DNA of 64,000 bases from a bacterium (GTDB lineage Bacteria > SAR324 > XYD2-FULL-50-16), in assembly GCA_032250835.1 (NCBI GenBank), contig JAVVEA010000005.1, positions 96,001 to 160,000 of the forward strand. The letters are read 5' to 3'. How positions within the stretch are numbered: the stretch's first letter is position 1; each line of letters begins with the position of its first letter. The notes under the pieces are model-generated. The model was given only the letters and a program-made list of their open reading frames with translations. It did no database searches and was not told the origin of the DNA. Below, in pieces: positions 19,100-34,677 of the stretch. A program made the position numbers and the translations under genes.

Positions 19100-20662
19100 T
19101 TAAAAGGTTAGGTCCACTTTGAGGCCCCCTTTGGGACTCAGGCTTTGGCTTGATTCGCCTAGCTCTAGAACCCCCCATTGGTAGTCCTGATATTCACCGC
19201 CCACAAACCCGCCTAGCGACAGGTCCAAAGGCAGCGGCCAGCGCAGCCATAAGGCCAAGGTGGTGCTGGTCCCCTTAAACCGCATAGCAGGCTCATTGGC
19301 TGGGGCGTCGGCTTCGCGGGTAAAATCCATGCGGCGGTGGATCAGGCTGATTTCGGGCTCTAAAGGCAGCGTTTCAGAGAGGTCCAAATTGAAGCGGTAA
19401 TGGCGGATTTTGGTCAAATAGTTGGGAGCCGCCGCGATTTCGGCGCGCAGGCGTTCTTTCTCGGCGATTTGTTCGGGGCTATCCCCTTCGCTGATGATGA
19501 TGTTATCCACCTTCCCGTCCACCGACCAGCCAACGTGCAACTCTGCCTTTAAGTCTAAGTCACGGTAGCTCAGCGCCATTTTGTTGATCTCCACTCGGTG
19601 ACGGAAGAAGGCCTCGTCAATATTAACGCCGTACTGCATGGGCATCCACATATATTCTATGGCCCAGGCATCATAGTCAAAACCGCCCATAATATGGTGC
19701 AACTCATTGAGCCTAAAGTCCACCGCCCCCATGTCTTCAGGCTTCCATTTATAGCGTTCCTCGCCCAGTAACAGCCGGTCAAAGTCGTACATGATGCTAA
19801 AGTGCACATAGTCCGCCTTAAGGCGGTAGTAAAACTGGCTCTGGGGCTCTTCATGTAGGCTATAGGGCATCGGGTGGGTACCGGTGACCAAAACCCGCTG
19901 GAACCCAAAGGGCCCTTCGGACAACTGTGACACGAAGCTGGGGATGAAGCTATTGACCCGAGAGCGACTCGCCCCGTAGCGGGTGCCCGAAACAAACCAA
20001 AGGCCGAGACTGTTAAAGTTTTGGTAAACCTGAGGAACAGCGTAGAAAACCTTGTTTTCCCGGTATTCTTCCACCACTTTATAGGCCCCTTGCATCCGGT
20101 CTAATTCCCGGCGGATCAACAGTGGATCGCCCAAGAGTTGCTGCGGATTGATCCGGTTTTCTTTGGGTTGAGCGGCGCAATGGGCAAAGGGATAGGGATG
20201 GGCAAAGCTAGCCTGCTGGCCGCTAGTGGAGCCAAAACTAAGCGGTTTAAGTTCTTCTTGACGGACGATGTCCCAAATTGCGTCGCGCCGGATAATGGTT
20301 TCGCGGCCGTTGAGGCTCAAAAAGCTAATTTCTTGTTCGCTAAAATCTATCGGCCAGCCTTGCACCAATGGCTTTAAAACCCCCTGGTGCCTTGTGCGCA
20401 CCTCCAAGGGGGCTAAAGCCGGGCGGTCAATCTGAGGCAAAAACAACTCACCCATAGGGTAAGAGGCCATGTAGATCACGTCGAAGCGGTCGATCTCTTC
20501 AAACTTCCCCTTTAAATCTAAAAGGGTTAATTTCTCTTCCCCAACATCCAAAATCACCCCAACCGAACGGTTGCAGGCTCCTTTGTATAAGGCGGTGATG
20601 TTGAGCGCTTGGGCGGCCTGGGGGAGGCCTACCGCCCAAAGGAGCACCGCCCCCAGCGCCAT
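19100..20662 (-). CDS. Secreted/outer-membrane hypothetical protein, paralog 2
   Basis: Signal peptide (AAQA); shared motifs with 20667-22265; C-terminal amphipathic strands ending KVDLTF. Confidence 0.75.
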   Translation of the reverse strand: MALGAVLLWAVGLPQAAQALNITALYKGACNRSVGVILDVGEEKLTLLDLKGKFEEIDRFDVIYMASYPMGELFLPQIDRPALAPLEVRTRHQGVLKPLVQGWPIDFSEQEISFLSLNGRETIIRRDAIWDIVRQEELKPLSFGSTSGQQASFAHPYPFAHCAAQPKENRINPQQLLGDPLLIRRELDRMQGAYKVVEEYRENKVFYAVPQVYQNFNSLGLWFVSGTRYGASRSRVNSFIPSFVSQLSEGPFGFQRVLVTGTHPMPYSLHEEPQSQFYYRLKADYVHFSIMYDFDRLLLGEERYKWKPEDMGAVDFRLNELHHIMGGFDYDAWAIEYMWMPMQYGVNIDEAFFRHRVEINKMALSYRDLDLKAELHVGWSVDGKVDNIIISEGDSPEQIAEKERLRAEIAAAPNYLTKIRHYRFNLDLSETLPLEPEISLIHRRMDFTREADAPANEPAMRFKGTSTTLALWLRWPLPLDLSLGGFVGGEYQDYQWGVLELGESSQSLSPKGGLKVDLTF

Positions 20663-20666
20663 GGAT

Positions 20667-22265
20667 TTATAAAATAAATTCAATGGACCCCACCAAGGAA
20701 TACTGGTTTTCCTGGAACCGGCTCGAAGAACCAAAATCCAGTTGGTAGTCGCGCAAGAAGAAATTCAGCTGGCCAGTCAAGACCACATAGCTCCCAAAGC
20801 GTTGTCTGGCATACATCAACGTCTTGATCTGATTTCCTTTAAAACTGCGGTCCTGCTCTTTAAAGACCTCTCGGTAATCTACCTGCTGCAAAATCGCCGC
20901 ACCGCCAAAGGTGATTTCGGGGTCCCAGCGGTAGTCATAATTGCTTCGCAGGTAAAAGACATCAAAACTGAAGCGTTGCAACTGGGCACGCAACTGGGAT
21001 TCTGAATCTAAGGCCAAGCTCGCGCTGATCATCGCGTCGGAGTCGTTTAGGCGCAGCTGTCGCTCATCGGGTTCATCCGCCTCGGCGTGGCTTTTGGCCC
21101 AGATCAGCTTAAAGGAGGATTTAGGGTGCTGGAACATAAACCGGAAGATCGGCGTGGCCTCGGTAGCTAAGACTTCTCGAAAAAGCCCGCCTGCGTTGAG
21201 CCCATAAATGGGATAATATACCCCCGCCGCCAGCGAAAAAGGCCCGTAATCTATCCCCGAAAGGGCTAAATAGTTGAAGCTTTCATTAACCGCCGCTTCT
21301 TTAGCGACGACCTTTTTGTAATAGTCCAGCGCAAAGGCCCGATTGGCGACCATGAACCCACTACCCGCCGCCAGGGCCATCGGGTTGCCCACAAAGCTGG
21401 CGTTGAAGAAATGGGATTTTAGGTCCGTCTGCATCACAAAAACCGGCTCTACTTGGGGCAGCCATTCTACCTGCTTGGTGCCCAAAACCGTCAGGCCTTG
21501 GTGGCTGTAAGGACGACCGGCGGACCATTGGAAGTAAAAGGGGAAAAAGGAGGGGAGTTCCTCATTGCTGTTAGGAACCGTCAGCGGCAGGCCAAACTTG
21601 GTTTCCTCATCAAAAACAAAGGGCCTTGCGTAAAACTGGGTGCGTTCTTGAAAACGCCGCAAATTGGTGAAGCCCTCTTGATAGGCCCCAAAGAACTGGC
21701 TGATGCGGATTTGATCGCTGATCACCCGGGTCGGAAAGAGCGGCTCGCCGGGTCCCGGAGCCTCTTGGTCGTGGCACTGCGAAAGCCCCTGACCCAGACG
21801 GGGCGAAACGGGCTGGGCTTTGGTCGGCGCTAGCTCGGCGGTGAGATGGACGGGCGCTTTAATCCGCACGATTTGGTCGATGCCCACCAAGGAGGTCTTG
21901 CCGTTGGTGTCGTAATAAACCACCAACTCTTCTAAGAACCGGATGGGCCAGCCAGTGAAGGCCGGACCGCCCCGGTGCTTTAGGTGGATTTCGCGTAACT
22001 CCGATTGCAACCGACCGGTCAGGCGGACTTGGGAGATCGGGTTTTCCAGTGCATTGTAGACTAGGATATGGCGTACTTCTTCGCGCCGGATACTGTTGAG
22101 GCGGCCATCTAAGCCCAACAGGTCGATTTGCTGGGCGTCTGTGTAGATGATCAACCCAGCCGGGCCTTCGCACTGGGCGTCCAGCAATCGATAGAGTTCG
22201 ATGGCCTGCGTGGCGGGAACCTGGACCAACAAAAGCGCCAGGAAGGCTAAAATTATCCGGTTCAT
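20667..22265 (-). CDS. Secreted/outer-membrane hypothetical protein, paralog 1
   Basis: Signal peptide (ATQA); shared motifs with 19100-20662; C-terminus VGSIEFIL. Confidence 0.75.
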   Translation of the reverse strand: MNRIILAFLALLLVQVPATQAIELYRLLDAQCEGPAGLIIYTDAQQIDLLGLDGRLNSIRREEVRHILVYNALENPISQVRLTGRLQSELREIHLKHRGGPAFTGWPIRFLEELVVYYDTNGKTSLVGIDQIVRIKAPVHLTAELAPTKAQPVSPRLGQGLSQCHDQEAPGPGEPLFPTRVISDQIRISQFFGAYQEGFTNLRRFQERTQFYARPFVFDEETKFGLPLTVPNSNEELPSFFPFYFQWSAGRPYSHQGLTVLGTKQVEWLPQVEPVFVMQTDLKSHFFNASFVGNPMALAAGSGFMVANRAFALDYYKKVVAKEAAVNESFNYLALSGIDYGPFSLAAGVYYPIYGLNAGGLFREVLATEATPIFRFMFQHPKSSFKLIWAKSHAEADEPDERQLRLNDSDAMISASLALDSESQLRAQLQRFSFDVFYLRSNYDYRWDPEITFGGAAILQQVDYREVFKEQDRSFKGNQIKTLMYARQRFGSYVVLTGQLNFFLRDYQLDFGSSSRFQENQYSLVGSIEFIL

Positions 22266-22936
22266 GGTAAAGTGATATTTTTCACAAATCGTTCAAATAA
22301 GTCGTCTAACTGAGGCAATACCCACTCACGACCGGGCAATTCCGCTGTGTCCCAGGCCTGGGCTACCAATTGAGGGGTCAAGCAGGCTAAAGCGGGCCCA
22401 GAGATTTCGGCGAAACTGACGTGCCAAGGTTCGGGGGCCACGCCGCCTAAATCACGGGCATAGGGGCGGAAAAAACCAAAGGGGCTTAGGTTATGATCCA
22501 GCCACCGGTTTAATTTTTCGAAAACCCCGCCGTTGGCGTATTCTTCGGGCAGTAGCTGCACCTGATAACCCGGCGGGAGGGCGGCCAAATCGATCAAGTC
22601 CAATTCGCTGCCCCAATGGTGCCGACTAGCACCGGGCAGAGCCGACCAACGCAGAATCGCCAAAACCAAGGCCTCAGGGGAGAGGGACTCAAAGTCCAGA
22701 ACCTTTCCCTGGGTATCATAAAGCGGGCGTTGGCCCGTTAGCTTAAGCCGCCAGATTCTCGCCTGGCTCTCAAAATCACGAAAGCCCGAAAAGACCCCTA
22801 GTTCGATCCCTTCCTTGCGGGCTTTTTGACGTAGGTCGATAAAAGCGCGCACCGCCAAGGGCGCGGCGGCAAAGCGCGGCTCTTGCACCTGAAGTATATG
22901 CTGGCGGGTTTTCCCGGTCAACTCGGCGGGCGTCAT
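22262..22936 (-). CDS. M15-family D-Ala-D-Ala carboxypeptidase (VanY-like)
   Basis: SGFRDF..Q, SALPGASRHHWG..LD, EPWH. Confidence 0.92.
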   Translation of the reverse strand: MTPAELTGKTRQHILQVQEPRFAAAPLAVRAFIDLRQKARKEGIELGVFSGFRDFESQARIWRLKLTGQRPLYDTQGKVLDFESLSPEALVLAILRWSALPGASRHHWGSELDLIDLAALPPGYQVQLLPEEYANGGVFEKLNRWLDHNLSPFGFFRPYARDLGGVAPEPWHVSFAEISGPALACLTPQLVAQAWDTAELPGREWVLPQLDDLFERFVKNITLP

Positions 22937-23568
22937 GAGGGATATAAGACCTCTTTTAAATCGCGCTGGGGAAGTTTGGACAGTTGGCTGAAGATGGCTT
23001 CGACCTGTTGCCGCGTTTCTTCTAAGCTGCCGGAGTTATCCACCACATAGTCGGCGCGGGCTCGCTTTTCTTCGAGTGGTAATTGGGCCTGAATGCGCCG
23101 CTCGATCTCAACTAGGTTCATGCCGCGCCCCTCGACCAACCGGCGGACCTGTTCGGCAGGCTCCAAGGCAACCAAGATCGTGGCGGCAAAGCGAGATTGG
23201 AGGTTTTTTTCAAATAATAGGGGGATTAGGTAACAGACCCGGGCGTCGGGGTCTTGTTGGAACAACTGCCGCAACAGCCGCTTTTTTTCATGGGCGATGC
23301 GCCGGTGGGTGATCGCTTCTAGCTCGCGCAGTAAAGGCAGCTCATTAAAAACGATTTCCGCCACCCTCTGGCGGTCCATTTCGCCGTTGGGCAAGAGGAT
23401 CTTAGGACCTAACAGGTCGACCACCTCTTCTAAGCCCTCACTCCCCTTGGCCACCACCTTGCGGGCTAGTTGGTCTGAATCAATGATGCGCCAGCCTAAG
23501 GCTTCAACCATCGGGGCCAGCGTGCTTTTCCCCGAGCCGATTCCTCCGGTCAAGGCCACCAAGATCAT
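22933..23568 (-). CDS. coaE: Dephospho-CoA kinase
   Basis: ALTGGIGSGKST, IDSD.LAR, IPLLFE, RI.AQLP.EEK...ADYVVDNSG. Confidence 0.95.
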   Translation of the reverse strand: MILVALTGGIGSGKSTLAPMVEALGWRIIDSDQLARKVVAKGSEGLEEVVDLLGPKILLPNGEMDRQRVAEIVFNELPLLRELEAITHRRIAHEKKRLLRQLFQQDPDARVCYLIPLLFEKNLQSRFAATILVALEPAEQVRRLVEGRGMNLVEIERRIQAQLPLEEKRARADYVVDNSGSLEETRQQVEAIFSQLSKLPQRDLKEVLYPS

Positions 23569-23569
23569 C

Positions 23570-24109
23570 TCAGTTCTCCCGTAGGTACCCAATCAAAGAC
23601 CCAAACCAACGCGTCAGGGTCAGGTAATATTTAACCAAAATCAAGGCCAGGAAATACCAAACCAGCAGACTGTGGGAAATATGCAGTAATTCTAACCCAG
23701 GCCATCCGCCCAGGTGCAGACGGGTTTTAAGGTGCAACAGTAAGCCCAATAGGGCAATCAAGCCGAGGGTAGAAAAAAACATCAGGTCCACCCAATGCCG
23801 GGGGCCTCGGCTTTTTATCTCGCGGATTTGGTCGCGGGCGGCGCTGCCTGCTTGTTTGAGCGCCACCTTCGGCGCGGTACGTCCCTGTATCCGGTCGTAA
23901 ACCAAAGCGACCAATACGGTGATCAACAAGATGCCAAAGGCCCGGTGGAACAATTGCATCTCGATGCGCCCAAAGGACTCTAAGATTTCTAAACGCCGCA
24001 GACCCAAGGCGGTCAGGTAACAAAGCAGGATCGCCGAGGGCAAGCCAAAACGGCGGAACTGGCGGATGCCAAATTCGTAGGCTGAAAAACGCAGCGATTG
24101 GAGATTCAT
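23570..24109 (-). CDS. Ni/Fe-hydrogenase cytochrome b-like membrane subunit with a reduced His set
   Basis: Four hydrophobic segments, third gene after small and large subunit homologs; LFHRAFG (TM2) and HISHSLL..LILVKYY (TM4). Confidence 0.7.
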   Translation of the reverse strand: MNLQSLRFSAYEFGIRQFRRFGLPSAILLCYLTALGLRRLEILESFGRIEMQLFHRAFGILLITVLVALVYDRIQGRTAPKVALKQAGSAARDQIREIKSRGPRHWVDLMFFSTLGLIALLGLLLHLKTRLHLGGWPGLELLHISHSLLVWYFLALILVKYYLTLTRWFGSLIGYLREN

Positions 24110-24115
24110 CGGCTC

Positions 24116-25576
24116 CTATTGGGTAGCGTCCAGGGCCATCGCATAATAGCTATGTAAAATGCGGTTGGCGGTCAGCGGTTTGATCGGGTTGTTCTCACTC
24201 AGTCGGTTCAACTCAGACTCGACCAAGCCGGTCTTGCCGAATTCGTCACGGCTGCTGAGCGTCCAGTTGGCCGGTGCCACGATCCGGTATCCGGTGATGG
24301 CTCCTTCGCCGATAAAGACCTGGTGCATCAAGCTACCCGAAGGCGCTTCGACCAGCCCCGTCCCGGTCCCACGCCCAGAGAAGGCAAGGGGCCGTTGTAG
24401 GTTGAGCTTTTGGCTAAAATCAAAACCCATCAGACTCTTAAAGAGGCTTAACATCAAAAAGCGCCCTTCAAAAGCTTCGGCCAGCAAGCGTGAGGCCGCG
24501 CTATTAGCGCGGTCGGAGCTAAGGCCTAGGTCTTCGATCCAAGCCGAGATGCTGTCGGAAATCTGCACGTTGCCGCCGCCGTAGTGGGTCACCAACATCC
24601 GCGCCAGGGGACCGGTCTGCATCACTTCGATTTCGTACCGGGCGGCTTTGATCCAGGTTTTCGCCTCTTTTTTGTTGAGGTCATAAATCAGATCGTTGGA
24701 CAGGCTCTTATTGTCCGCCGAACGGTAATAAGTGTCCACGAAAGATTCGGTCACCTTAGCGGCATTCAGGGGCTCCAATTTACCGTCCAGGTAAACACCG
24801 GAGGTATAATAAGAGGGGTCATCTTTGGCGTTTTCGATGTCCATGGAACCGAAGCTGATGAGCTGTTGGTTCTCGCCTAGTCCCTGGGCCAACTCCGGGG
24901 TTGCGCCGATCAAGGCCCGCAGATCGCCCGGCCAAGTTACCTCTACTGTTTGTTTGATGCCTTCGAGCAGCCGCAACAACCGCATCACCTGGTCTCGACT
25001 GACTTGCTGGTTAGTCACCCCGCCGGGGATCAAGTTCATCACGATCGGGAACTTTCCGCCTAGAAGCCCCAAACATTGTTGTAGCTTGCCTAAACAGGTC
25101 ACTACCTGGGGCAAATGGCTCAAAATCAGCCGCCCGCTTTCATGGCCTAAATCGCCCGGGGCTTCTTCACGCATCGCTAAAGCCGGAAAAAAGCTAGCCC
25201 GCAGCAGGCCTTGGGCCTTAAAGTGACGCTGGTTCAGATAGTCCGGCAGGACTTCAAAATAGAAATGAGAAATATGGGCGTGTAAAGTGGAGAGCTGCAG
25301 CATGATCTGGCGGATCTTCTGGCCCCCGTAGGTAGGCTTGATCTGGAGAAAGTTTTCCAGCGCTAAGGCAGCCGCCAAACCGTGAGCCACCCCGTTTTTG
25401 GCCGAAAGGGTCTGGGTCAGTTGGACTGCCTCCAAAGGAGACTTGCCAAAGAGCCGCCCTTCCATGTGCAGGGTGCGGCCCGACTGCAATAAAACCCGCC
25501 CTTCTTCGCCGTCGGTCTCCACCGAAACCTTCAACAGGCCTTCAATATTAGGAACCCGTTCGATCAATGATTTCAA
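24116..25576 (-). CDS. [NiFe]-hydrogenase large-subunit homolog lacking all metal-binding cysteines
   Basis: IEG..KV, HISHFY..LPDY, WIKAARY, GPLARM, EAPSG.L.H, APANW..S.RD..G..G..E; L1 and L2 CxxC motifs absent. Confidence 0.9.
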   Translation of the reverse strand: MKSLIERVPNIEGLLKVSVETDGEEGRVLLQSGRTLHMEGRLFGKSPLEAVQLTQTLSAKNGVAHGLAAALALENFLQIKPTYGGQKIRQIMLQLSTLHAHISHFYFEVLPDYLNQRHFKAQGLLRASFFPALAMREEAPGDLGHESGRLILSHLPQVVTCLGKLQQCLGLLGGKFPIVMNLIPGGVTNQQVSRDQVMRLLRLLEGIKQTVEVTWPGDLRALIGATPELAQGLGENQQLISFGSMDIENAKDDPSYYTSGVYLDGKLEPLNAAKVTESFVDTYYRSADNKSLSNDLIYDLNKKEAKTWIKAARYEIEVMQTGPLARMLVTHYGGGNVQISDSISAWIEDLGLSSDRANSAASRLLAEAFEGRFLMLSLFKSLMGFDFSQKLNLQRPLAFSGRGTGTGLVEAPSGSLMHQVFIGEGAITGYRIVAPANWTLSSRDEFGKTGLVESELNRLSENNPIKPLTANRILHSYYAMALDATQ

Positions 25577-26547
25577 GACTCATCCTCCCGGTCGTCGATC
25601 TGGTATTTGCGGGCCGAGCGTTTGGTTGCTCCGTGGATTCCTAAGCCCACCAAGGTTACCCCAAAGGCCCCGTAGGCCAAATCTTCGGCATGACGGACCC
25701 AGCCAGACTGGACCCCGGCAATCCGGTGGCTCAGTTGGCCGAAAAGACCCTGACCATGGTGCGAGGGGTAGTCGGGTTCCGAACAGCCGGTGCAGGGGCT
25801 GCCTACCGAAACACACCATTCATCGCTGCCGTTCCATTGGACGATGGGGCAGTCATTATAGGTGACCCGGCCTTTGCAGCCTAAGAGATAAAGACAACCT
25901 TCGCGTTCGCCGTGGTAGCGTACATAATCGCCCTTTTCAAAGTCGCCCCGGTATTCACAGCGGTCACAGACCAACTGTTCAAAAAACATGCGGGGCCGGC
26001 GGTGTTCGTCTAGTTCAGGTAGGCCATACATCAACAAATGGTTGAGTAAACCCAGCAGATGACGAGATTGGGCCGGTTGGCCAGGGATGCGGATCACCGG
26101 GGCGGGAGCACCCGAAAGAATCTGTCCGTTGAGGTCTAAATACCCGCCGGGCTTTTCGGCCAAATAGCTAGCTTCATTCCCCAAAAGGACCACGACCTTC
26201 GCGCGGGTGATCCAAGCATGTAAGATTTGGTTGACCCGGTCTAAGGCATCGTCGGGGAAAGCGCCTTCCAAAATGAGGATCGGTGGGCTTTGGTCTTCCT
26301 GGGGTTCTTCTCCTTCGGCCTCTAGACGGCGGAAGTAGCGCGCCAAGAAGGAAGGATATTCCTCTAGGCCCCACAGCCCGAGGCTGTGCGTCTCTGCGCT
26401 GTTGCCTTTCAGCCAGACCAAGGGTTCGGCTGCGCCCACTTCTTCCTGGGCCAACAAGTTGCTCAAGTTGGCGCTGAGGAAAGAAAGGCTCAAGGCCCCG
26501 GTGCCCAGCAGGCGGATAAAGTCTCTTCTGTTGTGTTGGTGGCTCAT
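25573..26547 (-). CDS. Tat-exported [NiFe]-hydrogenase small-subunit homolog lacking proximal-cluster ligands
   Basis: NRRDFIR Tat motif; CDRC, GCLYLLGCKG, NDCP, WCVSVGSPCTGCSEP; C-terminal TM with GIH. Confidence 0.92.
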   Translation of the reverse strand: MSHQHNRRDFIRLLGTGALSLSFLSANLSNLLAQEEVGAAEPLVWLKGNSAETHSLGLWGLEEYPSFLARYFRRLEAEGEEPQEDQSPPILILEGAFPDDALDRVNQILHAWITRAKVVVLLGNEASYLAEKPGGYLDLNGQILSGAPAPVIRIPGQPAQSRHLLGLLNHLLMYGLPELDEHRRPRMFFEQLVCDRCEYRGDFEKGDYVRYHGEREGCLYLLGCKGRVTYNDCPIVQWNGSDEWCVSVGSPCTGCSEPDYPSHHGQGLFGQLSHRIAGVQSGWVRHAEDLAYGAFGVTLVGLGIHGATKRSARKYQIDDREDES

Positions 26548-26552
26548 AGAAT

Positions 26553-27488
26553 TTATTGACCGGTTCTTTCCCTTTGATACCGGTACAAAGGCGCTCCGTA
26601 AAGGTCAAAAAACCGCGCCGAGAGCCGCTCGCGATTGGCCTGAAGGTACAAGAAACCCTGGCCGGGGTGTAGGAAAAGCGAGCCGGAACGCCCCTGGGGC
26701 GACTGGGACCCCTTGTAGGGATAACCGCCACCACCGGAGATCAAAAAATCGGTGCCCTCAGGATTGAGCTGAATATGCTCTAAATGATGTTCATGGCCCG
26801 AGAGCAACAAATCCACTTGCTCCCCCAGCCAGACATCCCAAAGCCAACGCAGCATCGCCGGTGCATCGCCATGATCCCCTGAACCATAAAGATTGTGGTG
26901 GGCAAAAACCAAACGCCAAGACTGAGCCGGAGCCAAGTCCAGTTGGTCCTTGAGCCAACCCCAACCGAAGGGGCGGCAGTTGGAGTTGAGTCCATACAAC
27001 TCCACCGGTCCCGCGCTGAGGTGGTATTTAAAGTCCGGCATGCGCCACTTGAGGCTATGTAAGCTGTATTCACGCTGGGCCAGGACGGAGCCTTTGGCGT
27101 CGTGGTTGCCTAAAACCACCAGAAAAGGCAGGTCCAAGTCGGCGTAGACCGACTCAAAATGACTGACCCATTGGGGGTCGGCTAGGCTGGTGACTCCTTT
27201 GGGGTAAAAGTTATCGCCCAAATAGAGGACCAAGTCGCAGCCCAGTTCAGCGCAAACCTTGGCGATTGATTGGGCCACTTGGGCTTGCAACCATTCGCCG
27301 GTACCCGCGTCGCCCAAGACAATCAACCGCAGCTCCGCTTTGCCCTTAAAGGTGTCTAGGGACATCAAAGCCCCCTGATCGGCGCAGCCCTTAGCCTGCC
27401 ATTGGGACCTTAGCTGCAGCAACGCCCATAAACCTAACAACAGCAGCACAGCGGCCAAAGCCCAGCGGAAGCGGCCTTTGGGTAACAT
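26553..27488 (-). CDS. Exported purple-acid-phosphatase-like metallophosphoesterase
   Basis: N-terminal TM/signal; LGDAG, LGDNFY, LGNHD, AHH, SGHEH. Confidence 0.9.
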   Translation of the reverse strand: MLPKGRFRWALAAVLLLLGLWALLQLRSQWQAKGCADQGALMSLDTFKGKAELRLIVLGDAGTGEWLQAQVAQSIAKVCAELGCDLVLYLGDNFYPKGVTSLADPQWVSHFESVYADLDLPFLVVLGNHDAKGSVLAQREYSLHSLKWRMPDFKYHLSAGPVELYGLNSNCRPFGWGWLKDQLDLAPAQSWRLVFAHHNLYGSGDHGDAPAMLRWLWDVWLGEQVDLLLSGHEHHLEHIQLNPEGTDFLISGGGGYPYKGSQSPQGRSGSLFLHPGQGFLYLQANRERLSARFFDLYGAPLYRYQRERTGQ

Positions 27489-27494
27489 GGGGAT

Positions 27495-28817
27495 TTACTG
27501 GGGGAAGTCTTTAAAGATCAATTCCATCTCCGCTTCTGCCTGGATCAGCGAGAAGCGTTCCTCTACCGCTTGGCGTAAGAATCGATTGATGGCGTCGATT
27601 TTTCCAATGGCGTAGTCGATCATCTTATTGGAGCCCTTTACATAAGCCCCGATGTTGATCAAATCCTCGGCTTCTTTGAAGGTCGCCAAGGTTTGGACCA
27701 TCCGGCTGGCGTTTTTCTGCATCGCCTTTGAGGTTACCTCTACCATCACCCTGGATTTAGACCGCAAGACGTCTATGGCCGGGTAATGCCCCTGGGCGGC
27801 GATTTCTCGGTCTAAGAGGATGTGGCCATCGACGATAGAGCGCACGGCGTCGCCGATCGGTTCGTTGGGGTCGTCGCCTTCGACCAAAACCGTATAAAAG
27901 CCCGTTAACGAGCCCGATGCCTTGGAATTACCGGCCCGCTCTAAAAGCTTAGGCAGCAGCGCATAGACCGAAGGGGGGTAGCCCTTGGTGGTTGGCGGTT
28001 CGCCGACGGCCAGACCAATTTCGCGTTGGGCCATCGCAAAGCGCGTGACCGAATCCATCATCAAAATCACATCCTGGCCTTGTTCGCGGAACCATTCGGC
28101 GATAGTGGTCGCCAAATAGGCGCCGTGCAGGCGCACCAAAGGGCTATGGTCGCTGGTTGCGGCAATCACGATGCTACGCTTAAGGCCCTCGGGCCCCAGG
28201 TCGCGCTCAATAAATTCCCGCACCTCTCGGCCCCGCTCGCCGATCAGCGCGATCACGTTGACTGCGGCGGTGGTGTTACGGGCCATCATGCCTAGCAATA
28301 CGGACTTACCCACACCCGAACCGGCCAAAATAGCCATCCGCTGTCCCTTACCGGCGGTCAAAAGGCCGTTGATGGCCTTAATGCCCACGTCTAAAGGCTC
28401 CTCGATGCGGCGTCGGTGCATGGGGTTGATCGGATCAGCGTAGAGCGGGGCTTTAAAGCGGGTGAAGATCGGGCCTAGATCGTCAATGGGTTGGCCCGTA
28501 CCGTCCATGCAGCGCCCCAATAGCTCGGGCCCGACGGGCACCAAGGTCTTTTCGACACTAGGGCGGACCACTGAGTCCGGGCCGACGCCCCGGATATCGC
28601 CTAGGGGCATGACAAAAACATACTTCCCCTTAATCCCCACCGCCTCACCGGCCACTTTCTCGCCGGTCTGCCGATCTAAGATGTGGCAGCGCCCGCCGAT
28701 ACGCATGCCGGGGTTGTGGGCGCGGATCATGAAGCCCACCACCTCGTCTACCTTGCCTTCGGGCTGATCGGTGTGCAGTTGGGAGACGCGCTGGCCATAG
28801 TCGTCTAAGGAAAACAT
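27495..28817 (-). CDS. fliI: Flagellar export ATPase FliI
   Basis: AGSGVGKS, LIGERGREV, MDSVTRFAMAQRE, GEPPTTKGYPPS, DGHI.L.R, YPAIDVL.S.SR. Confidence 0.97.
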   Translation of the reverse strand: MFSLDDYGQRVSQLHTDQPEGKVDEVVGFMIRAHNPGMRIGGRCHILDRQTGEKVAGEAVGIKGKYVFVMPLGDIRGVGPDSVVRPSVEKTLVPVGPELLGRCMDGTGQPIDDLGPIFTRFKAPLYADPINPMHRRRIEEPLDVGIKAINGLLTAGKGQRMAILAGSGVGKSVLLGMMARNTTAAVNVIALIGERGREVREFIERDLGPEGLKRSIVIAATSDHSPLVRLHGAYLATTIAEWFREQGQDVILMMDSVTRFAMAQREIGLAVGEPPTTKGYPPSVYALLPKLLERAGNSKASGSLTGFYTVLVEGDDPNEPIGDAVRSIVDGHILLDREIAAQGHYPAIDVLRSKSRVMVEVTSKAMQKNASRMVQTLATFKEAEDLINIGAYVKGSNKMIDYAIGKIDAINRFLRQAVEERFSLIQAEAEMELIFKDFPQ

Positions 28818-28823
28818 AGGCTC

Positions 28824-29900
28824 CTAAGGATTGCTGGGGTCGAACTCAGGAGGCGCTTTCAACTCATTGGGGACCGGGCCTGTTGGGGCGGCCTGCTCGG
28901 CGGGAGCGGCCGGGGGCGCGGTTGCTGGCCCTTGGGCCTTTTCGGCGTTCCGCTCGGCCACAAAATGAGGGTCGAACAGTGAGCGGCGCTCATCTAGGCA
29001 ATCACCTAAGACCCGCTCGATTTCTTCAAACTGCTGGTTGAGGTCCATCTGAACGCGGGCGAAGTCAGTCTCGACCACCGGACCGCTGGCTGAAACGCTC
29101 TCGCTTTTGCGGAAGGTCAAATATTGCCCTTCTTCCAGATAGGCTTCTAATTCCGGCTTGTGTTTGGCCAAAAAGTCGTATTCCACGGGATGCACGGTGA
29201 TGCGCACCTTGCCCAGGCCTTCAAAGTGCTTGAGCGCTGTTTTGATCAGGTTCAAAACAAATTCAGGCCGGGTCTTTAACTCTTCATGGACCACCTTCTT
29301 AGCCATCAACAAAGTCTGTTGGACTATTTCGGTTTCGTGCTGGTGGGCCAGGGTGATGCGGAGATCTTTCAACTCGGCCAACAAGTCCGTCACCTGCACC
29401 GCCAATTCAGCGCTATCCTTACGGGCTAATTCCAGCCCCGCTTCATAGCCTTTGGCGTGGCCCACTTCATAGGCGGCCCGTTCGATTTCCTCTACCGAGG
29501 CCTCGGCCTTTTCCACCATCGCCAGGGCGTCTTTTTCGGCTTCTTCGCGCCGGATCTGGGCATGAGCTAAGGTTTCTTCAGCCTCGGACAAGGCTAAATC
29601 GGCATTGCGCATGATCAGCTTCGCCTGTCGGTCGGCCTCGCTGCGGATGCGCTTGGAGTATTCCTCGACGTTGGTCAGTAAGCTGCCCTCTTCAACAAAG
29701 GCATTGGAGGTAAACTTGCTGGCGTCGCGGGTATCTAGGCGGATCGTGGCCTTGGCGCTTTTGGTGATCAGTGATTCGGGCTCGAAGGCCCGGACCTCTG
29801 GGTCCTCCTCGGGGCCTCCGAAACTCTGCATCACCTCTACCTGCGGGGCGTCGTCCTCGCTGATGTCCTCGAATTGTGGGGGAAGGAACTGGTTTTCCAT
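28824..29900 (-). CDS. fliH: Flagellar assembly protein FliH, extended
   Basis: Lies between fliF and fliI; AYEVGHAKGYEAG (GxxxG), ITVHPVEY, GPVVETDF. Confidence 0.85.
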   Translation of the reverse strand: MENQFLPPQFEDISEDDAPQVEVMQSFGGPEEDPEVRAFEPESLITKSAKATIRLDTRDASKFTSNAFVEEGSLLTNVEEYSKRIRSEADRQAKLIMRNADLALSEAEETLAHAQIRREEAEKDALAMVEKAEASVEEIERAAYEVGHAKGYEAGLELARKDSAELAVQVTDLLAELKDLRITLAHQHETEIVQQTLLMAKKVVHEELKTRPEFVLNLIKTALKHFEGLGKVRITVHPVEYDFLAKHKPELEAYLEEGQYLTFRKSESVSASGPVVETDFARVQMDLNQQFEEIERVLGDCLDERRSLFDPHFVAERNAEKAQGPATAPPAAPAEQAAPTGPVPNELKAPPEFDPSNP

Positions 29901-29921
29901 AGTTGCTTAGAGCCGGTGCTT

Positions 29922-31550
29922 TTAGGGTCCCTTCTTTTCCTTGAGCCAAGTCCGTACCAAAGACGCCGTCTTGAGCGGGTCCTGCTTGGCGATTTCGATG
30001 ATCTTGTCGCGTGGCGGAATCCCCGTTTCCTTTTCGGTCGGGATTTCCAATTCTTCGCCTTCTAGTTCGCCGATGGTAGTGGGCAGACCCATGAGCAGGT
30101 CCAAATCCTCGGGCTTGGCCGAGAGCTTCATCACCATCGGGCGGATCACCATGAAGACCAGGACAATCACAATCAAGCCGACCAAGACGTAGCGGACCAA
30201 GTCGATGATGAACTTGCGGGTCGCTTCGTTTTTCTGCTGCTTGAGGCGTTCCTGCTCGACCAAAGGCTTGGTGAAGCGGATGTTTTGCACCGTAATGGTG
30301 TCGCCCCGTTCGTTGTTAAAGCCCACGGTCTGTTTAGCGATCTGTTCGATCATCTGCAGGTCGGCGGGGCTCCATGACTTATATACAGGGCTACCGACCA
30401 CGTCGCCGTTTTCGTCGCGGACATACTCATACTTACCGTCCAACAAAACCGCCACGCTCATGCGCTTGATCTCGCCGGGGGCCTTTTTCTTGACTACATG
30501 CCGGGTGGAGTTGACGTAGTTGGTGCGCTTGACCCGCTTGTCTAAGTCGCTGACGTTGGCGATCTCGCTGGCACCGGCGCGTACTTCGGGGCTGTTGCTG
30601 GTTACGCCGGGCACGCCTACGGGAATGCTGCGGCTACCGGTGGCCTTTTCGTTGGTCGCTTCTTCACTAACCACCGCGCTTAAGTCGGGGTCCACTAAGT
30701 CTTCGGTGATTTCAGAGATATTAAAGTCCATCTCCACCGAGGCGCGCACCTCTACACGGTCCTTGCCGGTCACCTTTTCCAGCTGGCTTAAAAGCTTTTG
30801 CTCTAAGCGCAGTTCCACCAGCTGCTGGTGGCCAAAATTCTTATTGCGCATCTCTGAGCCGTCCTCGTCACCTACTTTAGAAAGCAGGTTACCGCTGGTA
30901 TCCGAAACGCGTACATCCTCCATAGACAGGTCTGGAACAGCACCGGCCACGAGGTTAACAATGGTGTTGACGCCCTTGCTGTTCAGGCGGTTGTTCGGGG
31001 CCATCTCGACCACTACCGAAGCGGTGGTGCGGCGGTCCTCGTCAATGAACAGGCTTTGTTCCGGGATGGCGACGGAGACCTTGGCGTTCTCGATGATGTC
31101 GATCAGGCTGATCAACCGGGCCAATTCCCCTTCTAAGGCGCGCTTGTACTGGACTTTCTGTTGGAATTCGGTGGCACCGAAGTTGGCTTCGTCGAAGATC
31201 TCAAAGCCCACCAAGCCACCCATCTGGAGGCCCGAAGAAGCAATCTGCAGCCGCACCTTGTCCACATCATCCACTGGCACCAAAATACCCCCACCACCGG
31301 GCTGCAAGACATACTGCACGTTCAGTTCGTCCAGTTTCTGGACGATCTTGGCGGTGTCGCCTTGCTTGAGGCCCGAAACCAAGGGTGCGTAGGTGATTTG
31401 GGAAGAAAAGAAGACGAAGGCGATCAGGCCTAATACAATACCCCCAAGGCTAGAGAAGAGGAATATCTTCTTACCTGTGGTCAGGCTTGCAAAAAAATTT
31501 TGAAACTGGGACTGAAAGTCGTCGACCAGTCCTACAGTCTGTTCGGCCAT
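29922..31550 (-). CDS. fliF: Flagellar M-ring protein FliF
   Basis: VGFEIFD..FGATEF.Q.V.Y.RALEGEL.R.I, SLF, ASVV, LVAGAVP.L, GVPG..SN, two TM helices, C-terminal DP...A..VR.WL. Confidence 0.96.
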   Translation of the reverse strand: MAEQTVGLVDDFQSQFQNFFASLTTGKKIFLFSSLGGIVLGLIAFVFFSSQITYAPLVSGLKQGDTAKIVQKLDELNVQYVLQPGGGGILVPVDDVDKVRLQIASSGLQMGGLVGFEIFDEANFGATEFQQKVQYKRALEGELARLISLIDIIENAKVSVAIPEQSLFIDEDRRTTASVVVEMAPNNRLNSKGVNTIVNLVAGAVPDLSMEDVRVSDTSGNLLSKVGDEDGSEMRNKNFGHQQLVELRLEQKLLSQLEKVTGKDRVEVRASVEMDFNISEITEDLVDPDLSAVVSEEATNEKATGSRSIPVGVPGVTSNSPEVRAGASEIANVSDLDKRVKRTNYVNSTRHVVKKKAPGEIKRMSVAVLLDGKYEYVRDENGDVVGSPVYKSWSPADLQMIEQIAKQTVGFNNERGDTITVQNIRFTKPLVEQERLKQQKNEATRKFIIDLVRYVLVGLIVIVLVFMVIRPMVMKLSAKPEDLDLLMGLPTTIGELEGEELEIPTEKETGIPPRDKIIEIAKQDPLKTASLVRTWLKEKKGP

Positions 31551-31724
31551 GAGGGCTCTGCAGAAAGGGGTTTACCGATCCTTGCCAGAAATCGGCGTCA
31601 AAGCAAATGGTTTCTGCCCGCATCCCTTCGGGTCTGGCTCAAATCAAGCCTTGCCAATCCGTCGGCTTCCTTGCCGGTCGGGCCCCGTCAAGAGCCCGAA
31701 GATTGGTCTATAGTCTATCGTTTG

Positions 31725-31740
31725 TGCAAACAATAGGCCA
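31725..31740 (-). promoter_or_regulatory. Sigma54 (-24/-12) promoter for the fliF operon
   Basis: Minus strand TGGCCTATTGTTTGCA (GG-N10-GC). Confidence 0.7.
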
Positions 31741-31760
31741 ACAGGTTTTTTTAAAGATCC

Positions 31761-32039
31761 TTAAACCTGCATCCGCATCATTTCCTCATAAGCACTGACC
31801 ACCTTGTTGCGGACGGCCATTAATAACTTCAATGAGGTCTCTGCTTTTTCCATGGCGACCATGGTGCCCGGGATGTCTTTATTGCGCCCGGCGGCCATCT
31901 CGGCAATTTTATGGTCCGTCTGGATCTGATCTTGATTGACTTGATCAAAGATGTCTTTGAAATTGTCAACGATCGCTTTACTGGCCCCAGATTTCTGGTG
32001 GGGCTGGACTTGATGGGCGGTGGATATCTGGCGGATCAT
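31761..32039 (-). CDS. fliE: Flagellar hook-basal body protein FliE
   Basis: VNQDQ, MVAMEKAETSLKL..AVRNKVVSAYEEMMRMQV. Confidence 0.95.
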   Translation of the reverse strand: MIRQISTAHQVQPHQKSGASKAIVDNFKDIFDQVNQDQIQTDHKIAEMAAGRNKDIPGTMVAMEKAETSLKLLMAVRNKVVSAYEEMMRMQV

Positions 32040-32069
32040 GTTTCCTCGGGGCAAATTTTACCGGTTAGC

Positions 32070-32387
32070 TCAGGACTTTTTAAGGTCCATTTTGCCGTAT
32101 TTATCGGCGGCCTGCTTGGCCGTCGGTCCATGGTGCTCGCCCTTGGCGGGCTCAAGCTGTTTGACGATCCCTTCTAGGGATTCTAGCGTCTTACCAATCT
32201 GGGTCACTTGGGTGTCCATCGAAGCGCTTTGGGCCCCTTCAACGGTGCGGTCCACTTCGGCCGAAAAGGCCTCGGCTGACTTAAGTAGTTCCCTAAATTT
32301 CTCGACTTCGTTTGGCTGTGGCTTTTTGGCCACAGCACCCTTTTTGGGGTCCATCCCGGTAGGGCCGATTTTGTTGATTTCGTTCAT
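32070..32387 (-). CDS. Hypothetical 105-aa protein inside the flgBC-fliE operon
   Basis: AGGAG upstream of ATG; fills the gap between flgC and fliE. Confidence 0.75.
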   Translation of the reverse strand: MNEINKIGPTGMDPKKGAVAKKPQPNEVEKFRELLKSAEAFSAEVDRTVEGAQSASMDTQVTQIGKTLESLEGIVKQLEPAKGEHHGPTAKQAADKYGKMDLKKS

Positions 32388-32401
32388 CTCAGACTCCTAG
32401 T

Positions 32402-32845
32402 TTACCGGCCTCCGATTTCCAATGACTTGGAAATCAGGTTCTTGGTTGCGTTCATCGCAGCCAAGTTAGCTTCGTAGGAGCGTTTAGAGACCATCAAGTT
32501 GGTCATCTCCTCGACTATATCTACGTTAGGCAGCGCCACATAACCCTCTTCATTGGCGTCGGGGTGGCTGGGGTCGTACTTCATCTTGGGCGGGCGGCTG
32601 TCTTCGACGACGCCCAATACTTTGACCTCGCGGATCCCCTTGTCCTGCTCTTGGTTTTGCAATTCCTGCAAAAAGCTCTTTTGCTGGGGCAGGGCACCAA
32701 AAATCACCTCGCGTCTGCGGTAAGGGCCACCCGAAGGGGTCCGGGTCGTGTTGACGTTGGCGATGTTACTAGAGATCACCTTCATCCGGGTCCGCTGTGC
32801 GGCCAAACCCGAAGAGCTGACGTTCATGCTATCAAATAAGCTCAT
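32402..32845 (-). CDS. flgC: Flagellar basal-body rod protein FlgC
   Basis: SSGL.AQR.RM.VISSNIAN, GGPYRR, YDPSHPDA..GYV..PNV, RSYEAN. Confidence 0.97.
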   Translation of the reverse strand: MSLFDSMNVSSSGLAAQRTRMKVISSNIANVNTTRTPSGGPYRRREVIFGALPQQKSFLQELQNQEQDKGIREVKVLGVVEDSRPPKMKYDPSHPDANEEGYVALPNVDIVEEMTNLMVSKRSYEANLAAMNATKNLISKSLEIGGR

Positions 32846-33264
32846 TATCTACCTCCTTCCGTGATGGCGCTCTTGAGCATGCGGAACTTCCAGTTCACCG
32901 CTTTGGTGGTGGCCTGGAACATCAATTGGTTTTCGGCTAACTTGGCCATCTCTTGGTCCAAATTCACCGTGTTCCCATCCATCCTTGGATCGGGATTAAA
33001 GCTGTTGATCTGTTGTCCCTGGACGGTCTCCAGGGGTTCGCGGTCTACACCGTCAAAGTGGCGCGGGTCGCTGGTCTTTAGCGGTCCCGGCTGGTCTTGA
33101 TACAGCGCCTTGGTCAGTTGGTCTTCAAAGACCAAATCTTGGGCGCGGTATCCCGGTGTTTCGCGGTTGGCTAAGTTAGAGGAGATCAGGCCGTTACGCT
33201 GGACGCGCATACCCATAGATCGCTCTAATAACGTAATATTTTTATCGAACAGTCGAATACTCAT
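32845..33264 (-). CDS. flgB: Flagellar basal-body rod protein FlgB
   Basis: ISSNLAN.ETPGYRA.DL.F, DGNTVNLDQEMAKLAENQ. Confidence 0.96.
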   Translation of the reverse strand: MSIRLFDKNITLLERSMGMRVQRNGLISSNLANRETPGYRAQDLVFEDQLTKALYQDQPGPLKTSDPRHFDGVDREPLETVQGQQINSFNPDPRMDGNTVNLDQEMAKLAENQLMFQATTKAVNWKFRMLKSAITEGGR

Positions 33265-33471: not shown

Positions 33472-34677
33472 TCACTCCTGCTCGCCTAACCAGCGTTCGG
33501 CATCGATGGCCGCACGGCAGCCCATCCCGGCGGCGGTGACCGCTTGGCGGTAGTGGGGGTCGGCAACGTCACCGGCGGCGAAGACGCCTTCGATGTTGGT
33601 CTTGCTGGTAATGCCCTGGGTGACCAAGTAACCCTGTTCGTCCATATCCAACTGCCCCTTGAAAGGCGCGGTGTTGGGGCTGTGGCCGATGGCGACAAAC
33701 AGGCCGGTGGTGCCCAACTCGCGGGTTTCACCGGTTTTAAGGTTTTTCACCCGCAGATCGGTCATCAATTTCCCGTCGCCCATCACCTCGTCAATGGCCG
33801 AATCAAGCACTAGTTCGATCTTGGGGTTCGCCTGAACCCGCTTCTGCATGGCCACCGAAGCGCGGAACTCCTGGCGACGGTGGATCAAAAAGACCTTCTC
33901 GCAGATGTTGGCCAAATAGCTGGCTTCTTCTAAAGCCGTATCCCCGCCGCCGACAACGGCCACCTTTTGTCCCCGGTAAAAGAACCCGTCGCAGGTAGCA
34001 CAAGCCGAGACGCCGTGGTTGCGGTATTTATCTTCGCTGGGCAGACCTAAATACTTAGCGCTCGCGCCGGTGGCGACGATTAAGGCGTCACAAGAATAGG
34101 TCTGGTCGTCGGTTTTGAGGTGGAAGGGGCGCTTGGACAGATCCACTTCATGAACCTCAGAAAAGACCAATTTGGTCTCGAAACGAACGGTCTGGGCTTC
34201 CATGTTCATCATCAACTGGTTTCCGTCGATCCCTTCAGGGAAGCCAGGGAAGTTTTCTACCTCGGTGGTGGTGGTCAGCTGGCCGCCCTTTTGGGGTCCG
34301 GCGATGATCAGCGGATTCAAACTGGCGCGGGCGGCGTAAATAGCGGCCGTGTAACCCGCCGGGCCAGAACCCAAAACAATGACGCGGTGGTGTTCCGTTT
34401 CCATTTCCTCTTCCTCCCTTTCAAGTAGGGGATCGAGCTTACCGGCCCGATCCAAGTCAAAGAGATCGTCGCAGCCGCCGACATGAAAATCGCCGATAAA
34501 AATCTGAGGAACGGTACGCTTGCCCCCGCTCTTTTCAATCATTACGTCGCGCTGCTCGGGATGCTCGTCGATCCAAATTTCTTCGAATTCAACGCCCTTG
34601 CGAGCCAAAAGAGACTTGGCGCGGTCGCAAAAGGGGCAATAATCCTTGCAGTAGATGACGACGTTTGGTTTGCTCAT
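33472..34677 (-). CDS. trxB: Glutaredoxin-3 / thioredoxin reductase fusion protein
   Basis: Residues 1-85: CPFC, TVPQIFI, GGCDDL. Residues 92-401: GSGPAG, GGQL, CATC, GGGDTA, AAGDV. Confidence 0.92.
   Translation of the reverse strand: MSKPNVVIYCKDYCPFCDRAKSLLARKGVEFEEIWIDEHPEQRDVMIEKSGGKRTVPQIFIGDFHVGGCDDLFDLDRAGKLDPLLEREEEEMETEHHRVIVLGSGPAGYTAAIYAARASLNPLIIAGPQKGGQLTTTTEVENFPGFPEGIDGNQLMMNMEAQTVRFETKLVFSEVHEVDLSKRPFHLKTDDQTYSCDALIVATGASAKYLGLPSEDKYRNHGVSACATCDGFFYRGQKVAVVGGGDTALEEASYLANICEKVFLIHRRQEFRASVAMQKRVQANPKIELVLDSAIDEVMGDGKLMTDLRVKNLKTGETRELGTTGLFVAIGHSPNTAPFKGQLDMDEQGYLVTQGITSKTNIEGVFAAGDVADPHYRQAVTAAGMGCRAAIDAERWLGEQE

Follow-up and report, generated by a model that had tools for sequence, protein, structure and literature searches.

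A conserved SAR324 family derived from group 1 [NiFe]-hydrogenases that lacks the Ni-Fe site and the proximal cluster

We analyzed a 64,000-nucleotide (nt) window of a bacterial genome of the SAR324 phylum (GenBank assembly GCA_032250835.1, contig JAVVEA010000005.1, 96,001 to 160,000), and all positions below are those of this window. Three intact open reading frames (ORFs) on the minus strand at 23570-26547, here called the triad, encode a hydrogenase-like small subunit, a large subunit and a cytochrome b in this order. The triad represents a real, conserved family that is neither a group 1 hydrogenase nor the hydrogenase-derived complex Ehr, and the family is apparently undescribed. It could be demonstrated from the sequences that there is no Ni-Fe site, no proximal iron-sulfur (Fe-S) cluster and no maturation extension. 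The triad is neither a hydrogenase nor a decaying copy. We consider that it has a slightly better than even chance of being a three-subunit oxidoreductase or electron relay, exported by the twin-arginine translocation (Tat) system, membrane-anchored and facing the periplasm, whose ancestor was a group 1 [NiFe] uptake hydrogenase and which has given up the turnover of H2. A first-pass annotation of this DNA had described full-length, tightly spaced ORFs without frameshifts in the small-large-cytochrome b order. We found the same ORFs at the same coordinates, separated by gaps of -4 nt (small/large) and 6 nt (large/cytochrome b).

The large subunit matched PF00374 with an E of 2.1e-49 and 169 bits against a cut-off of 25.8 (Pfam). 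Its best NCBIfam family was the [NiFeSe] type, yet with 194 bits against a cut-off of 600 bits, and both the small and the large subunits scored far under the NCBIfam cut-offs for genuine hydrogenases. The structure model of the large subunit (predicted local distance difference test, pLDDT, 88.8; predicted template modeling score, pTM, 0.92) had the group 1 fold, with Foldseek template modeling scores of 0.80-0.86 against NiFeSe and NiFe large subunits. The expectation that automated pipelines would mislabel the protein was borne out, as it passes the PF00374 cut-off and its orthologues are named 'nickel-dependent hydrogenase large subunit' in the sources. Surveys can therefore miscount these SAR324 bacteria as H2 oxidizers via the PF00374 match.

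In this copy, the L1 motif RxCGxC reads QTLSAKN, the L2 motif DPCxxC reads YAMALD, and EAPRG, whose arginine is termed the canopy arginine, reads EAPSG. The only two cysteines of the protein (161 and 168) fall outside the ligand columns. We compared 65 family members with 81 canonical sequences. The four Ni-Fe cysteines and the canopy Arg were absent from all 65 family large subunits, and no Cys was found at the four Ni-Fe columns in 29/29 genome copies, so that the loss of the Ni-Fe ligands, first noticed in this copy, is a property of the family. The four ligand columns hold Ser/Gly, Ser/Ala/Asn, Ser/Gln and Asp/Glu in the family and Cys in 81/81 canonical sequences, a set chosen by its intact L1 and L2 motifs. 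Position 58 is Ser in 60 and Gly in 5 of the 65 members, Cys is not among the main residues at position 61, and position 483, the site of the bridging Cys, is Asp in 59 and Glu in 6. The canopy Arg column has Ala (27), Gly (21), Ser (12) and Thr (3) as its main residues, against Arg in 100% of the canonical sequences.

Among the conserved canonical positions, the family large subunits retain 54 and have lost 16, including Arg/Cys/Gly/Cys of L1, the canopy Arg, Asp/Pro/Cys/Cys of L2 and the terminal His. Replacement also affects the GKxPH loop, at its His next to the proximal cluster. Glu12, His65, Asp112 and the Mg-ligand Glu39 are retained, and the alignment shows newly conserved residues at the vacated sites, namely Ser58, Asp483 and Met180 (64/65). 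In all 29 aligned genome copies the mature C-terminus is the end of the chain, with no cleavable extension. Selenocysteine or recoding at the metal sites was considered and ruled out by the absence of in-frame stops, TGA included, in the large-subunit matches (37/37 without a stop).

The small subunit matched PF14720 (E 2.4e-23, residues 189-263), while TIGR00391 stayed under its cut-off and no PF01058 match was found in the Pfam search. Its first Cys is at residue 194. The canonical cluster ligands and Mg ligands of group 1 enzymes were taken from PMC5902676. In the comparison of 82 family members with 20 canonical sequences, eight Cys were invariant in 82/82 family small subunits. The distal position 194 is Cys in the family and His in 20/20 canonical small subunits, and the medial position 245, which is Pro in [3Fe-4S] enzymes, is an invariant Cys. 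Because these eight Cys are invariant, including the distal change from His to Cys and the medial Pro/Cys position, two all-Cys [4Fe-4S] clusters are predicted in the small subunit. The first-pass annotation had called the medial and distal ligands retained. Both sites are indeed kept, but the invariant distal change from His to Cys had been overlooked.

None of the 82 family small subunits has an intact proximal cluster site, in agreement with the earlier observation on this copy. A stray Cys occurs in the first segment in 3/82, a Cys at columns 125 or 157 in 0/82, and a Cys shifted by two (column 127) in 20/82. Residues newly conserved at the vacated sites, by alignment, are Glu/Asp125 (76/82) and His/Tyr163 (79/82). 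The losses are restricted to the H2 end, and the eight-Cys wire is more constrained than in the canonical enzymes (82/82). It is reported that the same pair of His-to-Cys and Pro-to-Cys changes was engineered in a hydrogenase, and that H2 evolution increased three- to four-fold in lysates with uptake unchanged (PMC3701524). Because the engineered double mutant evolved more H2 at the same uptake, an all-Cys wire of this kind conducts, with a bias towards the large subunit (PMC3701524). The triad may be regarded as a natural version of this double cluster change made by engineers.

The Tat signal, noted earlier for this copy, is also a family feature: the arginines R7 and R8 are invariant in 28/28 orthologues and present in 70/82 of the wider set, the remaining 12 being gaps there, and TatC was found in 5/5 genomes checked. 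The membrane anchor with its His is present in this copy as annotated, but His305 is not a family constant. It occurs in 20/28 orthologues, that is, in 17/17 of the host's order and 3/11 of the other order. The anchor segment is Gly-rich, and its hydropathy is under the threshold of 1.3 used.

For the third ORF, Pfam and NCBIfam gave nothing over cut-off and only a sub-threshold MarC match. The first rank in Foldseek with its model (pLDDT 86.1) was E. coli HyaC (4gd3_A, probability 1.00, E 0.2). VIA-align over 48,161 chains also put this chain on top (Z 13.1, root mean square deviation 6.4, 154 aligned), in a tie with superoxide oxidase (13.0) and followed by FdnI (9.7). PF01292 leads for this protein in the ESM Atlas at 0.85-0.87. 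A profile comparison to the HyaC of the host genome aligned both His but scored low (probability 10.9, E 0.0028). A Z of 13 is borderline for helical bundles; because the gene order and the aligned His pair add to it, we regard the modeled assignment as a HyaC-fold cytochrome b as firm enough. Only His55, Gly122 and His146 are invariant in 28/28 cytochromes b, whose mean identity is 31%. The second, late His of transmembrane helix 4 (TM4) is kept in 0/28 and the TM1 His in 10/28, and both are absent from this copy. The claim that one heme His pair was lost and the other kept therefore extends to the family. We presume the usual assignment of the two heme pairs to the membrane sides, which is supported here by the order of the helices and their bias in charge, and the topology inferred in this way would place the retained His55/His146 pair on the periplasmic side. 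The cytoplasmic loop of the cytochrome b varies in length and sequence.

The analysis covered 88 genomes of the phylum in seven families (f1, the host's, to f7), and two orders carry the triad. The small and large subunit genes were found in single copy in 37/88 genomes. They occur in 17/19 genomes of the host's family, including this one, in 1/1 of f3 and in 19/19 of f7; the two misses in the host's family are genomes of 68% and 79% completeness. The triad was found in 0/45 genomes of f6 and in 0/4 of f2, f4 and f5 together. The order small-large-cytochrome b was seen in 20 of 21 wide region views (the window and the loci L040-L059), and the remaining view ends at a contig edge. Named homologues come from Candidatus Lambdaproteobacteria and SAR324 cluster bacteria, and the others carry generic labels. 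In a profile search of 1.84 billion representatives, full-length family members scored >370 bits; the scores of canonical enzymes start near 312 bits and continue downward. The family may also occur outside the SAR324 phylum, since most members from this search have no taxon name. Pattern scans with the large subunit found no relative in genome contigs or metagenome contigs, and a plasmid search gave 110 records, all of <60% identity, with the 8 listed at 24-26%.

In an IQ-TREE analysis of 48 rows, the 15 sampled family members formed one clade (100/99) that was split by order and separate from the genome's own hydrogenases; the trees contained no group 4 sequence. This pattern fits vertical descent from an ancestor of the two orders. 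Using the Nei-Gojobori method on 9 genome pairs, we obtained ratios of nonsynonymous to synonymous substitution (dN/dS) of 0.053-0.480 in 21 of 26 gene comparisons, and the other 5 were saturated at synonymous sites. This copy against the two closest genomes gave a dN/dS of 0.10-0.21, with a dS >1 that makes these values rough. The comparisons indicate that all three genes are under purifying selection. The first-pass annotation had proposed testing whether the same Cys/His losses and synteny recur in relatives with a dN/dS well below 1, and we found the same losses and gene order across two orders. Recent neutral decay of this copy, with close relatives that carry canonical ligands, is not what the data show.

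These results bear on the idea that the triad is a decaying pseudogene, or else an active hydrogenase with unusual ligands. It is true that the large subunit passes the PF00374 cut-off and keeps Glu12, His65, Asp112 and Glu39. However, no stops were present in 37 large-subunit matches, the dN/dS of 0.05-0.48 refutes decay, no thiolate is left at the four metal positions, the proximal cluster is missing, and some carriers have no detectable Hyp proteins. We give this idea next to no chance.

Other full-length large-subunit homologues also lack all four Ni-Fe cysteines (P0116, P0136, P0091, P0085, P0099, P0167, P0059 and P0070), and some of the other Cys-less large subunits stop just at the L2 motif. 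Thermincola is the named source of P0116, and the cluster of P0167 is from Desulfovibrionaceae. In the tree these subunits occupy four or more separate positions, none of them within the SAR324 family. A shared origin with the Thermincola-type subunits is unsupported, as the join in FastTree (support 86) was not kept in IQ-TREE. Pattern scans with two of the other Cys-less large subunits gave no match for one and a weak match of 24% for the other.

The absence of hyp maturation genes and of an endopeptidase from the window was also noted at first. We found none when the ORF list was read by eye, but this is weak evidence because the same genome has hyp genes on another contig. Elsewhere the host genome encodes HypD, other hyp-like genes and three Cys-bearing hydrogenases. 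Labeled from their translations, these are an operon of group 1 small, large and cytochrome b genes accompanied by hyp genes, a HupUV-like pair by a sensor kinase and a group 3b-like cluster. The carriers are more informative. HypD was not found in 13/29 of them, including genomes of 96-98% completeness; HypF was over cut-off in 0/5 carrier genomes checked; and 17/37 carriers show no second large-subunit homologue. Four of the five genomes checked (G035, G052, G043 and G058) have no PF00374 gene outside the triad, and HypD and HypF were not found in them. The gene content of these genomes demonstrates that the triad does not depend on Hyp proteins. Expression should be easy because no Ni-Fe maturation is needed.

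The same genomes argue against an accessory of genuine hydrogenases, in which the triad would serve a Ni enzyme as dimer partner, decoy or membrane adaptor. The host and many family genomes do encode canonical group 1 enzymes, and the distal clusters of group 1 dimers are 12.3 Å apart (PMC5902676). However, the carriers without another large subunit, the four genomes with a sole PF00374 gene and no HypD or HypF found, and the lack of clustering with hydrogenase genes in the views examined speak against it. As a family-wide role it is already contradicted, and we think it very improbable.

With regard to function, the earlier proposal of a repurposed, periplasm-facing complex with a wire of two [4Fe-4S] clusters and a heme and with a metal-free large subunit is supported. 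Among the sensor, relay and scaffold roles it left side by side, we rank an oxidoreductase or relay first. The small subunit would bind two all-Cys [4Fe-4S] clusters and take the signal-less large subunit out via Tat, and the cytochrome b would bind one heme on the periplasmic side. Electrons would then pass along heme, distal cluster and medial cluster and be exchanged with the menaquinone pool. No electron would cross the membrane, so that no charge would be separated and the complex would not be electrogenic. The wire would stop at the interface of the small and large subunits, the former place of the proximal cluster and the Ni-Fe site, where the large subunit would cap its end and offer a site or docking surface for a redox partner other than H2, either a small molecule or a periplasmic protein. 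We presume that something lies beyond the medial cluster because this invariant cluster would otherwise be a dispensable spur. Cofactor-less catalytic subunits are described in other periplasmic quinone-linked complexes, such as QrcB and ActB (PMC6303296), and by analogy with this precedent an emptied catalytic subunit can be kept in such a complex.

Several points weigh against this oxidoreductase or relay. No partner gene was found to travel with the triad, the neighbors in the views examined being flagellar and housekeeping genes, and none of seven families (HypD, FliF, ActD, MqnA, CcoN, MenB and UbiB) separates carriers from non-carriers. No conserved polar residue for a quinone site was found in the cytochrome b (28 sequences), and a quinone site of the HyaC type would presumably lie at the heme that is lost here. 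The potentials of all-Cys clusters are expected to be well under that of menaquinone, which constrains the direction of electron flow. In addition, the newly conserved residues could simply plug the emptied cavities. Quinone sites of the HyaC type are placed on the N side by PMC6303296.

A bolder form of the proposal is that the former proximal-cluster and Ni-Fe cavity became a new substrate site, lined by Ser58, Asp483 and Met180 of the large subunit and Glu125 and His163 of the small subunit and fed from menaquinone by the medial [4Fe-4S] cluster. This would be an undescribed class of respiratory enzyme, and we regard it as possible but doubtful. If true, it would parallel, in the periplasm and from group 1, the step in which the active site of a hydrogenase became the quinone chamber of complex I, and two SAR324 lineages would have it as a core function.

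MqnA or MenB was found in 31/37 carriers, and UbiB was over cut-off in 0/88 genomes; this gene content indicates that the SAR324 phylum uses menaquinone. The menaquinone route splits by family, with MqnA in f1 and f3 and MenB in f6 and f7. ActD was found in 35/37 carriers and 80/88 genomes overall, and the host's ActD is on another contig. Alternative complex III, judged by ActD, is near universal in the phylum.

Two further explanations draw in part on the location of the triad. In the host's order it follows flgB-flgC-fliF-fliH-fliI, and in the other order it stands beside a LexA-like gene and fliR-flhB-flhA-flhF-flhG. In 15 of the 21 region views, a gene for flagellar structure or export lies within about 10 kb, and 2 more views have flhF/flhG alone. 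This setting speaks against a purely respiratory interpretation. A redox sensor could be built from such a complex, in which the heme and the two [4Fe-4S] clusters act as a dead-end capacitor in equilibrium with the menaquinone pool or the periplasm, and the large subunit or the membrane helices relay its state to a signaling or motility partner. A dead-ended wire, the absence of conserved quinone-site residues, the single-copy and core-like presence, and the adjacency to fliF-fliH-fliI in an operon in one order and to the LexA-like regulator and fliR-flhB-flhA-flhF-flhG in the other would suit a sensor. On the other hand, the triad has neither a fused nor a conserved neighboring kinase, chemoreceptor or output domain, the cytochrome b has a variable cytoplasmic loop, and the LexA-like gene of the other order has no match in the host genome. 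A sensor seems unlikely to us.

The same adjacency would also suit a flagellar or cell-pole accessory, that is, a structural or redox-supply part of the flagellar apparatus, and it would also suit such a role that the flagellar neighbors differ between the orders. However, the distribution of the triad does not follow that of flagella. G035 and G052, single contigs of 89% and 83% completeness, keep the triad, with no FlhA, FliF or flagellin over cut-off. G011 (L058, G011:C26:7453-8805) has an intact triad beside a fliF in two pieces, with fliH and fliI missing. Conversely, in G022 fliI-coaE-vanY is present while the triad and the phosphoesterase gene between fliI and coaE are gone, and flagellin and FliF are kept. 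In f6, 25/26 genomes have FliF and none has the triad. We judge a flagellar role improbable, and the adjacency is best read as an ancestral location. As a separate observation, flhF and flhG are kept in G052 (L049:14408-17161) and G035 (L050:15522-17746), single-contig genomes of 1.6-1.7 Mb in which flagellin, FlhA and FliF were not found.

In this genome, co-transcription of the triad with the flagellar genes is likely. The gaps from fliF through the small subunit gene are 5-22 nt. The large-subunit gene starts with TTG, 7 nt after GGAGG, and overlaps the stop of the small-subunit gene, and an ATG of coaE sits 1 nt past the stop of the cytochrome b gene. A promoter scan found 4 sites, where chance alone would yield 6.3. 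The G+C content of the triad, overall and at third codon positions (GC and GC3), is like that of the neighboring genes. The features are listed in Table 1.

Table 1. Features of the triad, its surroundings and the hydrogenases encoded elsewhere in the host genome (aa, amino acids)
Feature	Position	Strand	Remarks
Small subunit	25573-26547	-	324 aa; Tat signal, flavodoxin-like N-domain that lacks the cysteines of the proximal cluster, two predicted all-Cys [4Fe-4S] sites, C-terminal anchor helix
Twin-arginine signal peptide NRRDF	26449-26547	-	Conserved R7/R8; cleavage probably near residue 33
Distal ligands C194, C197, C218, C224 and medial ligands C233, C245, C252, C255	25783-25968	-	
C-terminal membrane anchor with His305	25624-25683	-	Aligned to its counterpart in the host's canonical small subunit
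Metal-free large subunit	24116-25576	-	486 aa; fold of group 1 hydrogenases; lacks a signal peptide and a C-terminal extension
Former L1 motif, residues 55-61	25394-25414	-	Cys1 to Ser58, Cys2 to Asn61; Arg and Gly gone
Former L2 motif, residues 476-486	24119-24151	-	DPC gone; bridging Cys to Asp483; terminal His to Gln
Four-helix cytochrome b, HyaC fold	23570-24109	-	179 aa; one conserved heme pair, His55 (TM2) and His146 (TM4)
Upstream flgB, flgC, fliF, fliH, fliI, metallophosphoesterase	26553-33264	-	Pfam; probably co-transcribed, outside the complex
Downstream coaE and vanY-type peptidase	22262-23592	-	Pfam
Genuine hydrogenases of the host genome	G000:C43:34000-57400 and G000:C17:21000-26100		

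Three other features of the window were noted. At 28824-31550, fliH directly follows fliF with no fliG between, and the same close spacing was found in the other genomes viewed. At 33472-34677 there is an apparent fusion of a glutaredoxin (CPFC) and a thioredoxin reductase, labeled from its sequence, which lies upstream of flgB in many genomes of the order. At 19100-22265, two paralogues of 544 and 532 aa lie in tandem; their N-termini are signal-like, neither matches a Pfam family, and they share 23% identity over 351 aa (E 1e-15).

No description of the triad family was found in the open-access literature, subscription journals being mostly outside the search. In a paper on the SAR324 phylum, HydDB assigned group 1d hydrogenases to aquifer genomes, and the passages on this subject do not mention a ligand-free copy, although such genes could be listed in its supplements (PMC9031357). 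The triad is kept core-like even in genomes of 1.6-1.7 Mb without hydrogenases or flagella, which suggests that the cells need what it does.

Compared with known systems, the triad shares with the group 1 enzymes of the HyaABC/HoxKGZ/HydABC type (PDB 4GD3) the gene order, Tat signal, anchor helix, large-subunit fold, HyaC-fold cytochrome b and positions of the medial and distal clusters. It differs from them in lacking the Ni-Fe ligands, the canopy Arg, the C-terminal extension and the proximal cluster, in having a distal Cys for His and one heme pair for two, and in being kept without Hyp proteins. The group 1a [NiFeSe] enzyme HysAB (PDB 2WPN) gave the best NCBIfam and Foldseek matches and also has a short large subunit. 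A medial [4Fe-4S] cluster, as predicted for the triad, is reported in [NiFeSe] enzymes (PMC5902676). Unlike HysAB, the triad has neither selenocysteine nor Cys at the metal positions and no in-frame TGA, and it scores far under the family cut-offs.

Ehr, whose large subunit likewise has no cysteines for metal binding, is oriented to the cytoplasm and includes antiporter-like subunits, and complex I keeps the proximal cluster as N2, whereas the triad has lost it. In contrast to Ehr, the top sequence and fold matches of the triad are to group 1, it is predicted to be Tat-exported, and its sole membrane subunit is a four-helix cytochrome b. Ehr was reported to descend from group 4, with its hydrogenase-derived, cysteine-free large subunit kept under selection (PMC7304191). 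QrcABCD and alternative complex III (ActB) resemble the proposed complex in working principle only, being periplasm-facing and menaquinone-linked with a cofactor-less catalytic subunit (PMC6303296). Their folds are unrelated (Mo/W-bisPGD and NrfD families) and they have multiheme cytochromes c, none of which is encoded with the triad; Pfam and NCBIfam found no Mo/W-bisPGD, NrfD-type or multiheme cytochrome c domain in the three triad proteins. In Mco of ANME-2 archaea, the hydrogenase cytochrome b (VhtC) is reused without H2 chemistry (PMC9012536); Mco swapped the hydrogenase subunits for a multiheme cytochrome, whereas the triad keeps both subunits. Cofactor-less descendants of hydrogenases have already been described from group 4 (Ehr and complex I), and from periplasmic group 1 none was found in the open literature. 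The triad would be a second, independent case of a hydrogenase scaffold gaining a new job.

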